Assembly: GCA_036560185.1 (NCBI GenBank)
Contig: DATBRS010000246.1
Location: forward strand, 1-59,431
Length of the DNA: 59,431 bases
Direction of reading: 5' to 3'
From: Myxococcota bacterium
GTDB taxonomy: Bacteria > Myxococcota_A > UBA9160 > UBA6930
The notes under the pieces are model-generated. The model worked only from the letters and a program-made list of their open reading frames with translations. It was not told where the DNA came from and searched no databases. The position numbers and the translations under genes are program-made. Shown one piece after another: positions 23,086-28,082 of the stretch; the stretch's first letter is position 1; each line of letters starts with the position of its first letter.

Positions 23086-24015
23086 TCAGCGCGACGCGGT
23101 CGCGACCAGGTGCTGCACGCGGGGATCCATGAGCGCGGCGAGGGTGTCGCCGGCTTGCACGCGGGCGCGCAGCGCCTCGTCGGCGAGCAGATCCTGGAAG
23201 GCGGGGTCCTCTTTCACGCGCCGGAGCCGTGGGCCGACCTCGGCCATCACCACGGCGAGCGCGTCCTGAAATTGTTGGGCGTCGACGGCGGCGGTCGCGG
23301 GCACGAGACCGAGCGCTGCGAAGCGACCGCGGAGCTGCGCGTCGCGGGCCAGCTCAGCGAAGGTCGGGCGCGCGAGGGCGCCCGCGACGTCGCCGCTCTC
23401 GAGGTCGCGCCAGAAGCCCGCGTCGGATTGCAGCACGCGCACGCGCGGATCCGCGGCGATCTCGCTCAACGCCGCGATGCTCTCGCCGGGCCGCGCGATC
23501 CAGTGCGTCACGACGCGCGTGCCGCCGTCGCCGTTCGCGCCGATGCGCTCAGCGGCAGCGCCGGCGACCGCCTGACCCACGGCGGCGGAACGAGCCCCCG
23601 ACAGGTCCGGCAAGCCGCCGGCTGGATTCAGCTGGCGCACGCTCTCGGCGAAGCCCGCGAGCCACAGGATCGGCAGCAACAGCAAGGCGCCGCGCGCGAT
23701 CCCGAGCAGCGAGCCGAGCGCGCGAGACGCGTCGGAAGCGTCGTCGTCGGCTGCCGCCCGCACCTTGCGCGCCGCGATCTCGACCAGCCCCTGCGCCCCC
23801 AGGAACCCGAGCGCGCCTGCGGCGACCAGGCCGAGCCACGGTGCCACGCCGAGCGCGTCGGCCAGCGGTGCGCCCGCGAGCTTGCCAGCGCCCCACCCTG
23901 CGGCGTAGGCAACGGCCAGCCCGACGAGGCGCACGCCGCTCTCCGCTGCGCCGCGGTGCGCGCCGAGCCACGCGAGCGCGAAGAGCGCGAGGACGACGAC
24001 GAGATCGATCGCCAT
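23086..24015 (-). CDS. CvpA-family membrane protein with a long soluble C-terminal extension
   Basis: N-terminal DLVVVLALFALAWLGAHRG and SRALGSLLGIARG are CvpA hallmarks. About 4 TMs are followed by roughly 150 aa of hydrophilic helical sequence. Confidence 0.75.
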   Translation of the reverse strand: MAIDLVVVLALFALAWLGAHRGAAESGVRLVGLAVAYAAGWGAGKLAGAPLADALGVAPWLGLVAAGALGFLGAQGLVEIAARKVRAAADDDASDASRALGSLLGIARGALLLLPILWLAGFAESVRQLNPAGGLPDLSGARSAAVGQAVAGAAAERIGANGDGGTRVVTHWIARPGESIAALSEIAADPRVRVLQSDAGFWRDLESGDVAGALARPTFAELARDAQLRGRFAALGLVPATAAVDAQQFQDALAVVMAEVGPRLRRVKEDPAFQDLLADEALRARVQAGDTLAALMDPRVQHLVATASR

Positions 24016-24060
24016 GCGCGAACAATCGACCTCCCCGAGCGCGCGCTGAAGCGCCCGGGG

Positions 24061-24101
24061 TGCAGCATCGGCGCTGCAGGGGTGCAGGATTCGGCCTGCA
24101 C
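24061..24101. promoter_or_regulatory. Tandem palindromic enhancer-like sites (putative upstream activator sequences for the sigma54 activator)
   Basis: TGCAGC-atcggc-GCTGCA (24061-24078) and GTGCAGG-attcgg-CCTGCAC (24082-24101). Both have a 6-nt spacer and their centres are 22 bp apart. Confidence 0.7.
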
Positions 24102-24150
24102 TTTTGACGCGCGATTCGGCGCGCGGACGCCGCTGCGTGCGAATCAGCGC

Positions 24151-24166
24151 TGGCACGCCGGTTGCT
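24151..24166 (+). promoter_or_regulatory. sigma54 (-24/-12) promoter of the kinase-regulator operon
   Basis: TGGCACGCCGGTTGCT matches the TGGCAC-N5-TTGCW consensus with exact GG-N10-GC spacing. Confidence 0.85.
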
Positions 24167-24198
24167 CTTTGGACTCGTCCATGCTGCGATGGAACGCA

Positions 24199-25280
24199 AT
24201 GGACCAGCACCCCGGCGACTGGCGCGACCTGCGGCGCGCGATGCGCGACGCACGCCGCGCGGCGCGTCGAGCGCGCATGGGCGGCTACGGGCTCGCGCCT
24301 CGGCAAGACCTGACGCCCGAGCAGCGGGCCCTGCGCGACGCCAAGCGCGCCGCCGACGCGCGCATCGGCTTCCTGATCCACGGCACGATCTACGCGCTCG
24401 TGATCTTCGGAATCCTGATCAGCGGCGGCTTCGTGGCCGCGCTCACGACGGCGATCTTCTGGGGCATCGGCGTCGCCTCGCATTTCATCGCCGCGATCGC
24501 GGGGCCGGAGCTGCGCAAGCGCTGGATCGAGCAGCAAGTCGCGCCACGGGTCGTCACCGAGACTCAGCAACAGCGCCGCGATCTCGAGGGCGAGCAAGCC
24601 CGCCGCGTCCAGCGGCTCTCGGCTTCGCTCGCACACGAGATCCGCAATCCGATCACCGCGGCCAAGAGCCTCGTGCAGCAAATGGGCGAGGACCCGGCCG
24701 CCGCGGAGAACGTGAACTACGCGCAGGTCGCGCTGCAGGAGCTGGAGCGCGTCGAGCGCTCGATCGCGCACTTGTTGAAGTTCGCGCGCGAGGAGGAGCT
24801 GAAGCTGGCGAGCGCGCGGCTCGACGAGATCGTGATCTCCGCGCTCGCGACGCTGCGCGATCGCATGCGCGACCTCGGCGTGAAGCTCGAGACGGACACC
24901 GCGGGCGCCGGCGCTTTGACGTGCGACGCCGAGCAGCTGCGGCGCGTCGTGATCAATCTCGCGACCAACGCGCTCGACGCCCTGCGCGACGCGAAGACTC
25001 CGGCCCCGCGCCTGCGCGTCGCGGTCGGCGAGAACCTCGCGGGCACCGAGGCGTGGCTGTCGGTGCGCGACAACGGGCCTGGCATTCCGGCCGAGCATCT
25101 GCCGCGCCTGTTCGATCCGTTCTTCACCGCCAAGGACGGCGGCACCGGCCTCGGCCTCGCGCTCGCCAAGAAGATCGTGGACGCCCACGGCGGAACGATC
25201 GAGACGAAGAGCGAGCCGGCGCATGGCGCCGAGTTCGTCGTGACGCTGCCGAAGTCCCGGCCGAGCGCGGGAGCACAGGC

Positions 25281-25284
<4 letters not shown>
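24199..25284 (+). CDS. Sensor histidine kinase with N-terminal 2TM domain
   Basis: 2TM-like segment GFLIHGTIY...FWGIGVASH...RKRWIEQQV. H-box LAHEIRNP, N-box VVINLATNALDA, G1 VRDNGPGI, F-box LFDPFFT and G2 GGTGLGLA. The start could be 24181 or 24199. Confidence 0.92.
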
Positions 25285-26693
<1,409 letters not shown>

Positions 26694-26759
26694 GCCATCG
26701 CGCGCGCGCCCTCGAGATTTCCGCTTCGAGCAGTGAACCCCGCCCGAAACGCGCCGCGT

Positions 26760-26775
26760 AGGCACGCGTAGGGCA
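26760..26775 (+). promoter_or_regulatory. Possible secondary sigma54 promoter upstream of pspA
   Basis: AGGCACGCGTAGGGCA has GG-N10-GC spacing and a good -24 element (GGCACG), but the -12 element is degenerate (GGGC instead of TTGC). Confidence 0.35.
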
Positions 26776-26809: not shown

Positions 26810-27556
26810 ATGGACTCGCACGATCGACCCGGCTTCTTCGCACGCCTCGGCTCCCTGATGCGAGGGCTCGGCTTCGGCTGGGTGCGCGATCGCGAGGAGC
26901 GCAACCCGCGCGCGGTGTACGAGCAGGCGATTCAGGCGCGCCTCGGGCAGTACCGCTCGCTGAAGGACGCCGTCGCCGGCATCCTCTACACCCGTAACAA
27001 GCTCGAAGCCGAGCTGGCCGAGCGCCGCCACGAGCTCGCTCGCACCGTCGACGACATTCGCCGCGCGCTCACGCGGAGCGACGATGCCGCCGGCCTCGCG
27101 CTGGTGCAGCACAAGCAGAACGTGCTGGCGGACGTCGAGCGCGTCGAGCGCGAGGTCGAGACGCTGCGCGGCGAGGCCGAGGACGCGAAGAAGAACCTGA
27201 TGCGCTTCCGCGAGGAGATCCGCTCGCTCGAGCACGAGAAGGGCCGCATGCTCGCGGCGCTCGCCAGCGCGCGCGCGCGCCGGCGCATGCACGAGGCGCT
27301 CGACGGCCTGTCGGTGGAAGCCGACGTGCAGGCGCTCGAGAACGTGCGCATGCACGTGCAGCGCTCCGTCGCCGCCGCGACGCTCGAGCGCGAGCTCGGC
27401 GCGGGCGACGAGACCACGCAGCGCATCCGCGCGCTGCGCCGCGAAGCGATCGAGGAAGGCGCACGGCGCGAGTTCGAGGAGCTGAAGCGCCTGCACGGCG
27501 CGCACAACGTCGCCGCGCTGGCGGGCCGCGAGGTCAGCGCGGGCGGGCTCGCGTGA
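26810..27556 (+). CDS. pspA: PspA/IM30 (Vipp1 / ESCRT-III-like) family protein
   Basis: N-terminal amphipathic helix GFFARLGSLMRGLGFGW, the conserved Pro in ERNPRAVYEQAI, long coiled coils, DDAAGLALVQHK and ALDGLSVEAD. GGAGG SD. Confidence 0.85.
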   Translation: MDSHDRPGFFARLGSLMRGLGFGWVRDREERNPRAVYEQAIQARLGQYRSLKDAVAGILYTRNKLEAELAERRHELARTVDDIRRALTRSDDAAGLALVQHKQNVLADVERVEREVETLRGEAEDAKKNLMRFREEIRSLEHEKGRMLAALASARARRRMHEALDGLSVEADVQALENVRMHVQRSVAAATLERELGAGDETTQRIRALRREAIEEGARREFEELKRLHGAHNVAALAGREVSAGGLA

Positions 27557-27590: not shown

Positions 27591-28082
27591 ATGAGCACGG
27601 ACGCGCGCGCGCTCCCCGAATGGACCGACGCGCTCGCGCGTCCGCGCCTTCCCGCGCGGCAACAGCGCGACGACGAGCGCGAGTTCGCACCCGCGCTGCG
27701 CGCCATCGCGCGGGCCAAGAAGCTGGCTCCGCAGCTCCAGCTGCTCGGGCGCGTGCACACGTTGTTAGGCGCGGCGGCGCTCAGCGCCGCGCTCGGCGCG
27801 AGCGTCGTCCTCGGCGGCGCCGTGCTGTTCGCGAGCCCGGTACCGCAGTGGGCGCTCGCCGTGGGCGGGGCGCTGGTCGCAGCGCTCGGGCTGCTCGGCC
27901 TTCCCTGGCTCGCGTTGGGCTTCGGCCTGCGCCGGCGGCGCGCGTGGGCACGCACGCTGGGCTTCGTTTGCAGCGCCGTGCTCCTGCCCTTCGCGCCGCT
28001 CGGGACCGCGCTCGCGGCCTGGACGCTCGTGGTGTTGCTCGGCTGGAACCCGGCCCTCGCACGGGCGGCCGGGGCGGACTGA
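27591..28082 (+). CDS. Small multi-pass membrane protein
   Basis: About 4 hydrophobic segments and the motif LGFGLRRRRAWARTLG...LLPFAPLGTALAAWTLVVLL. GGAGG SD; lies 34 nt after pspA. Confidence 0.7.
   Translation: MSTDARALPEWTDALARPRLPARQQRDDEREFAPALRAIARAKKLAPQLQLLGRVHTLLGAAALSAALGASVVLGGAVLFASPVPQWALAVGGALVAALGLLGLPWLALGFGLRRRRAWARTLGFVCSAVLLPFAPLGTALAAWTLVVLLGWNPALARAAGAD

Follow-up and report, generated by a model that had tools for sequence, protein, structure and literature searches.

A candidate sigma-54 enhancer and promoter ahead of a kinase, activator and PspA-like gene operon in an uncultured lineage of Myxococcota

Introduction

What is controlled by two palindromes and a −24/−12 element that stand together in one gap between divergent genes, and which protein would read them? 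The question is raised by a stretch of 59,431 nucleotides from a Myxococcota bacterium (contig DATBRS010000246.1; the whole stretch, at its full length, is called the window here), which has a G+C content of 72% and comes from an assembly of 4.32 Mb in 295 contigs with a completeness of 91.6%. An earlier note, made from the letters of the window, had read the region as a complete sigma-54 control region, in which the palindromes form an NtrC-type enhancer, act as the operator of the adjacent activator in a positive autoregulatory loop, and supply a motif for finding the regulon. Here we examine these claims in the window, in the assembly and in the orthologous loci of relatives. We consider it very probable, judging from sequence and its conservation, that the region provides enhancer and promoter to an operon of four genes, which would depend on sigma-54 and encodes a histidine kinase, an NtrC-family activator, a PspA-like protein and a small membrane protein.

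Elements of the control region

The control elements all fall inside the 165-bp intergenic gap 24016–24180 (the sequence was read from 23700 to 24500), which lies between a cvpA-like gene on the minus strand (23086–24015, with its ATG at 24015; a membrane protein of the Colicin_V/CvpA family by Pfam) and the kinase gene on the plus strand. Closest to the kinase gene is the sigma-54 promoter, on the plus strand at 24151–24166, in which TGGCAC and TTGCT are separated by gccgg (written out as TGGCACgccggTTGCT and as TGGCACGCCGGTTGCT). Its GG occupies −25/−24 and its GC −13/−12, exactly 10 nt apart in the TGGCAC-N5-TTGCW arrangement expected of this class of promoter, and it faces the kinase gene. 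In this numbering the T of TGGCAC is set as −26, and the canonical −24/−12 spacing places the predicted transcription start zone at 24175–24181 on the plus strand, with a nominal +1 at 24177. The consensus −24/−12 element that the earlier note had reported proves to be an exact match: TGGCAC-N5-TTGC occurs once in the window against 0.03 expected from dinucleotide shuffles, and the element recurs in 75 of 80 orthologous loci. The assembly as a whole holds 16 exact matches to TGGCAC-N5-TTGC, most of which look to lie upstream of genes, and since 11 of the 16 run on as TTGCTCT, the same as in the window, the organism appears to have a sharp sigma-54 promoter consensus. Predictions of sigma-70 promoters and of terminators gave nothing informative.

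Further upstream lie two dyads, neither of which is assigned a strand. The distal dyad, at 24061–24078, has the arms TGCAGC and GCTGCA around the spacer atcggc (TGCAGCATCGGCGCTGCA) and is centred on 24069.5, at about −107.5. The proximal dyad, at 24083–24100, has the arms TGCAGG and CCTGCA around attcgg (TGCAGGATTCGGCCTGCA) and is centred on 24091.5, at about −85.5; its arms reach 7 bp, GTGCAGG/CCTGCAC, when they are followed out to 24082–24101. The two centres are 22 bp apart and on the same helical face. The dyad form, the spacers and the centre spacing that had been described are all borne out by our own reading of the sequence, and the distances of about 85 and 107 bp from the start site that had been given for them agree with the positions found here. 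Exact copies of TGCAG-N8-CTGCA number two in the window, where 0.03 are expected and where none of 100 dinucleotide shuffles reached two, and five in the whole assembly, two of these being the window dyads. When the assembly was scored with a position weight matrix (PWM) built from orthologous sites, the proximal and distal dyads came out as its best and second-best scores (21.2 and 20.5 bits).

A weak third site, TGAAG-N8-gTGCA, lies at 24047–24064 (no strand assigned; 11.4 bits) and has its right half in common with the distal dyad at a 14-bp offset. Its CTGAAGC is kept in five of the seven loci of the genus, and TGAAG half-sites recur in distant relatives. An NtrC-type enhancer is taken here to be at least two dyads, at least 70 bp upstream of the promoter and on the same helical face of the DNA, and this is what the gap contains.

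Conservation across relatives

A scan of species-representative genomes yielded 80 oriented loci, all of them from uncultured Myxococcota or 'Deltaproteobacteria' metagenome-assembled genomes (MAGs), and clear orthologues of the kinase were found in 19 of the 26 genera sampled of its GTDB order, or about three-quarters. In 75 of the 80 loci, which are mutually related and do not count as independent events, GGCAC-N5-TTGCT stands before the kinase gene with TGCAG-N8-CTGCA sites upstream of it. When the site centres are anchored on the promoter (76 loci), the distal sites lie mostly at −104 to −110, clustering at about −106 to −110, and the proximal sites at −84 to −90. The two best sites are 19–23 bp apart in 44 loci and 33–34 bp in another 12; apart from a single outlier of 26 bp, these spacings are two or three helical turns, as expected of dimers on one face. 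The NtrC-type geometry that the earlier note had recognised in a single locus is a layout that recurs in orthologous loci at a near-fixed distance from the promoter.

The motif drawn from 122 sites is gTGCAGy-N6-rCTGCAc, of which the core columns are circular, since the sites were picked by the pattern itself; that choice has no bearing on the flanks (G/C at −1, pyrimidine at +6), on the free spacer or on the positions. In an alignment of the seven loci of the window's genus the invariant letters are mainly the four half-sites, TGGCA..GTTGCTCTT, CATGCTGCGAT and AATCGAC, and the sequence drifts inside the spacers of the dyads and along the 50 nt from the proximal dyad to the promoter. The AATCGAC, which lies just upstream of the cvpA-like start (within 24016–24046 of the window) and is unchanged in the genus, may belong to the ribosome-binding or promoter region of the cvpA-like gene.

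In 22 of 76 relatives (within loci L027–L100) an IHF-like site, yAAnnnnTTGAww, was observed between the enhancer and the promoter, against 0.84 expected. Its position is fixed at about 30 nt upstream of TGGCAC, and it differs from the reverse complement of WATCAANNNNTTR by one letter at the most. The IHF-like site is missing from all seven genus loci, so that DNA looping in the window's genus would be either unassisted or helped by another bend.

The operon and the transcription of the PspA-like gene

Four genes follow the promoter on the plus strand. The first, at 24181–25284, encodes a histidine kinase with two transmembrane segments (2TM) and the HisKA and HATPase_c domains of Pfam, and the ATG at 24181 is its conserved start; the core of the kinase is most similar to AtoS and ZraS. 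The second, at 25281–26693, encodes an NtrC-family response regulator and enhancer-binding protein of 470 aa (Response_reg, Sigma54_activat, AAA_lid_14 and HTH_8), whose GTG start overlaps the stop codon of the kinase gene (GTGA, 25281–25284). In this activator the receiver (REC) domain spans residues 6–116, the Walker A motif reads GESGTGKE, and GAFTGA is found at residue 220; among solved structures it is closest to Aquifex NtrC-family proteins, NtrX and ZraR. The third gene, at 26810–27556 and 116 nt past the activator gene, encodes a PspA/IM30-like protein (52.1 bits in Pfam against a cut-off of 33.9), which is the single PspA homologue of the assembly. The fourth, at 27591–28082 and 34 nt past the PspA-like gene, encodes a small multi-pass membrane protein of 163 aa, which has no match in Pfam, is found in the equal position in 15 other loci, and may be the membrane partner of the PspA-like protein. 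Beyond the regulator pair, then, the payload of the promoter is the PspA/IM30-like gene and the small membrane protein, and no terminator-like site was found between the four genes in the window.

The order of kinase, activator and PspA-like gene is held in nearly all loci that are long enough to show it, and the PspA-like gene directly follows the activator gene in about 70 loci. Outside the genus the activator gene either overlaps the PspA-like gene (ATGA) or ends less than 45 nt before it, the gene-order gaps running from −4 to 45 nt, and because these genes overlap or nearly touch there, the ancestral unit is taken to be one operon read from the sigma-54 promoter. Copy number of the kinase gene varies: in about half of the loci it is tandemly duplicated, with two 2TM kinases before the activator (for example L028, L032, L046–L050 and L057), and in the window's genus there is one copy.

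Within the genus, the PspA-like gene might instead be transcribed mainly from a promoter of its own, either of ECF type or a weak second sigma-54 promoter, in which case the sigma-54 element before the kinase gene would chiefly autoregulate the kinase and the activator. The activator/PspA-like gap is widened to 74–235 nt in the genus, and this widened gap carries a conserved block with TGAAC-N16/17-CGTA and GGC-N10-GGGCA, which in the window lies on the plus strand at 26734–26775 and is present in all seven genus loci and in L028 and L071. The block holds an ECF-like TGAACC-N17-CGTA (26734–26760), with N16 or N17 across the loci, which we take to be close to the sigma-W consensus of B. subtilis. 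Overlapping it is a weak sigma-54-like AGGCAC-N5-GGGCA (26760–26775), which has a poor −12 region (GGGCA) and no dyads upstream. The block would fit an ECF-type −35/−10 promoter better than a second sigma-54 promoter. Against a mainly separate transcription of the PspA-like gene stand the lack of a terminator-like site between the activator and PspA-like genes and the ancestral co-transcription that the close spacing outside the genus implies; moreover, an own promoter and the sigma-54 input are compatible and may coexist. We regard mainly separate transcription as doubtful, if far from negligible, and prefer the reading in which the PspA-like gene of the window's genus would be co-transcribed from the sigma-54 promoter.

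A different arrangement was observed at locus L080, where the gap of 163 nt between the activator and PspA-like genes contains a further GGCAC-N5-TTGCT, with TGAAG-N8-CTGCA and TGCAG-N10-CTGCA upstream of it. This element would be a second sigma-54 promoter directly before the PspA-like gene.

The protein that would bind the dyads

The gene at 25281–26693 encodes what a cognate activator of such an enhancer should have, namely a GAFTGA-bearing AAA+ domain and a C-terminal HTH. In 74 loci the predicted recognition helix of this activator, GMVRQSLQQK-I/M-REL, is at least 95% invariant, while the whole proteins are 64–91% identical, and this near-invariant helix parallels the invariant half-site. 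The earlier proposal that the adjacent activator has its operator in the dyads is thus backed by comparison, through the 75 of 80 loci with the same layout, the invariant helix and the synteny. These comparative links are correlations, and they point to the operon's own activator as the probable dyad-binding protein. The positive autoregulation that had been predicted along with it agrees with the layout: the promoter precedes the operon that encodes the activator, and since it would drive that operon, the activator would raise its own synthesis.

One MAG, OFTM280, has a split system, in which one locus (L054) carries the kinase and activator genes without a PspA-like gene and another (L093) carries kinase and PspA-like genes without an activator gene. 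Both loci are preceded by the same dyads and promoter, as would be expected if this activator family recognised the operator in trans.

The dyads could also be the operator of a different regulator, for example a repressor, that acts on the divergent cvpA-like gene, with the sigma-54 promoter merely adjacent. The distal dyad is 46 bp from the cvpA-like ATG at 24015, the two dyads together span only 46–85 bp from it, and the cvpA-like neighbour is there in all loci of the genus; furthermore, the PspF sites of E. coli also repress the divergent pspF promoter, a precedent that counts in favour of this reading. However, the cvpA-like gene adjoins the locus only in the genus and in three other loci, and in about 65 loci that have no adjacent cvpA-like gene the distance from the dyads to the −24/−12 element is fixed all the same, which makes a regulator dedicated to the cvpA-like gene quite improbable. 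A side effect of the dyads on the cvpA-like gene in the genus is possible, as an addition only, to the role as an activator-bound enhancer that we favour. Finally, that the palindromes are hairpins (as a terminator or attenuator, or as some extragenic repeat element) is a reading we reject as extremely unlikely, for although each dyad could form a stem of 6–7 bp with a 6-nt loop, both lie upstream of the predicted plus-strand start and of the divergent gene, where transcription is unlikely, the rest of the genome shows no repetition of the motif, and the TGCAG/CTGCA arms are kept as sequence, without compensatory changes, while the spacers vary freely, which argues for a protein site rather than a hairpin.

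Regulon and sigma factor

The regulon was searched for in both directions, by scanning the assembly with the PWM of orthologue sites and by scanning 260 bp ahead of each of the assembly's 64 sigma-54-like promoters. As a means of finding a regulon, the use that the earlier note had foreseen for it, the motif came to nothing, as the PWM scan of the assembly gave no second target. The other PWM matches in the assembly are single, score at most 20.4 bits and have no strong, correctly placed −24/−12 element; within 300 bp of them there are two −24/−12 elements with two mismatches each and no others. A coding test of these matches by stop-free frame and GC3 was crude and not discriminating at a G+C content of 72%. 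In the reverse direction, strong upstream sites were found at the window promoter alone among the 64. Because there is no other strong site near a −24/−12 element, the regulon appears to be a single operon within the approximately 92% of the genome that is available.

An rpoN gene (Sigma54_DBD, Sigma54_CBD) was not detected in the 91.6%-complete assembly, which nevertheless encodes 17 sigma-54 AAA+ domains, mostly with GAFTGA or GSFTGA, besides the sigma-54-like promoters. Each of the eight congeners has a single rpoN, as do 19 of 21 relatives. Since the congeners carry the gene and the assembly is only 91.6% complete, the absence of rpoN is probably an assembly gap, and the promoter would be expected to depend on sigma-54 in vivo.

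The first start codon

The ATG of the kinase gene at 24181 comes 15 nt past TTGC, at about +5 of the predicted transcript, and no Shine-Dalgarno sequence stands ahead of it. In 63 of 76 loci an ATG that follows TTGCT by 12–14 nt opens a frame that runs into the kinase domain without a stop, while the distance from this conserved ATG to the kinase domain varies from about 90 to 480 nt between loci; in five loci the ATG after TTGCT is in a different frame. In the genus, CATGCTGCGAT, in the region 24166–24201 of the window, is invariant at the nucleotide level. There is an alternative ATG at 24199, also invariant in the genus, which is preceded by GGAA or GGGA. The G+C fractions at the three codon positions are 0.75/0.61/0.78 in the N-terminal extension of the kinase and 0.71/0.43/0.89 in the kinase body, which weakly backs a coding N-terminal extension. 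If the transcript starts as predicted, the start codon lies at +3 to +5 and lacks a Shine-Dalgarno sequence, so the kinase mRNA may be leaderless or near-leaderless.

A proposed mechanism

In the mechanism that we propose, the kinase, whose input architecture consists of two transmembrane segments only, would sense a signal in the membrane and phosphorylate the receiver domain of the NtrC-family activator. Through its Fis-type HTH the activator would then bind, as dimers, to both TGCAG-N8-CTGCA dyads (about −107 and −85), perhaps with the help of the weak third site at about −121, and the dimers so bound would assemble into an AAA+ ring. By looping of the DNA, the ring could touch the sigma-54 holoenzyme that waits in the closed complex at TGGCAC-N5-TTGCT (24151–24166), and ATP hydrolysis would open the promoter and allow transcription from near 24177. 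The transcript would carry the kinase, the activator, the PspA-like protein and the membrane partner, with a membrane-protective output through the PspA-like protein. Because the operon encodes both the kinase and the activator, such a circuit would be self-amplifying.

Comparison with known systems

The window's regulator resembles those of NtrC at glnAp2, ZraSR, AtoSC and NtrYX, with which it shares a REC-AAA+-HTH_8 architecture with GAFTGA, a pair of strong dyads some 100 bp upstream on one face of the helix, and operons that are autoregulated. Unlike these systems, its target is a membrane-stress gene and not a nitrogen, zinc or acetoacetate gene. The dyad itself, TGCAG-N8-CTGCA over 18 bp, is one that we take to differ from the NtrC site. 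The activator falls under every NCBIfam equivalog cut-off and is therefore not an orthologue of any named system.

Another close known system is psp of E. coli, whose control region has the PspF sites UAS I and UAS II, an IHF site and the sigma-54 pspA promoter (see also the survey PMC9239133); PspF has two targets there (PMC9239133). Like psp, the window has two tandem sites about 80–130 bp upstream of a −24/−12 promoter, a PspA-family gene and a very small regulon, and relatives of the window's locus have an IHF-like site between enhancer and promoter. A sigma-54 promoter upstream of a PspA-family gene in one operon is what the window contains, and co-transcription would be expected in its genus. 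In contrast to PspF, which lacks an input domain and answers to PspA, PspB and PspC, the window activator carries a receiver domain and is paired with a cognate kinase; here the regulator genes are part of the operon and not divergent from it, the operator sequence is different, and among the genes noted at the locus there is no pspB or pspC. We tried the activator as a PspF orthologue and rejected it, given the REC domain and a score of 270 bits with the PspF model TIGR02974, where the cut-off is 443.55.

In B. subtilis, a kinase and a response regulator, LiaRS, induce a PspA homologue and its small membrane partner, liaIH, from a single main promoter, as described in the same survey (PMC9239133). 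The window is like this system in the kinase input, which is membrane-embedded only, and in the target, a PspA homologue with a small membrane partner. Regulation of the LiaRS type was rejected all the same, as the window has a sigma-54 AAA+ regulator that would work from a distant enhancer, whereas LiaR is a sigma-70-type REC-HTH protein (NarL/LuxR-type). In a keyword search outside their supplementary neighbourhood tables, two broad Psp surveys (PMC11237479, PMC9239133) and a paper on the Desulfovibrio sigma-54 regulome (PMC4641369) gave no mention of an operon of kinase, REC-bearing activator and PspA. For the psp genes of Desulfovibrio, the regulome paper lists a PspF-like regulator without a receiver (PMC4641369).

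It is possible, and we suggest it tentatively, that the locus represents an undescribed Psp wiring across an uncultured order of Myxococcota, in which the places of PspBC/PspF and LiaRS would be taken by a 2TM kinase that senses within the membrane and a sigma-54 activator that can be phosphorylated, both in one self-amplifying operon whose first cistron is leaderless or near-leaderless (start at +3 to +5). For one activator family, in a lineage without cultured members, this analysis supplies the sequence of an operator (gTGCAGy-N6-rCTGCAc) and a promoter, together with a regulon that is likely to be a single operon, and two of its features would be mildly useful beyond annotation: a Psp-type response under a two-component sigma-54 switch, and a first start codon that stands almost at the sigma-54 transcription start. 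Set beside the systems above, the cis-architecture is the textbook NtrC/PspF layout and changes no concept, and the wiring at the level of the system is a modest variant.
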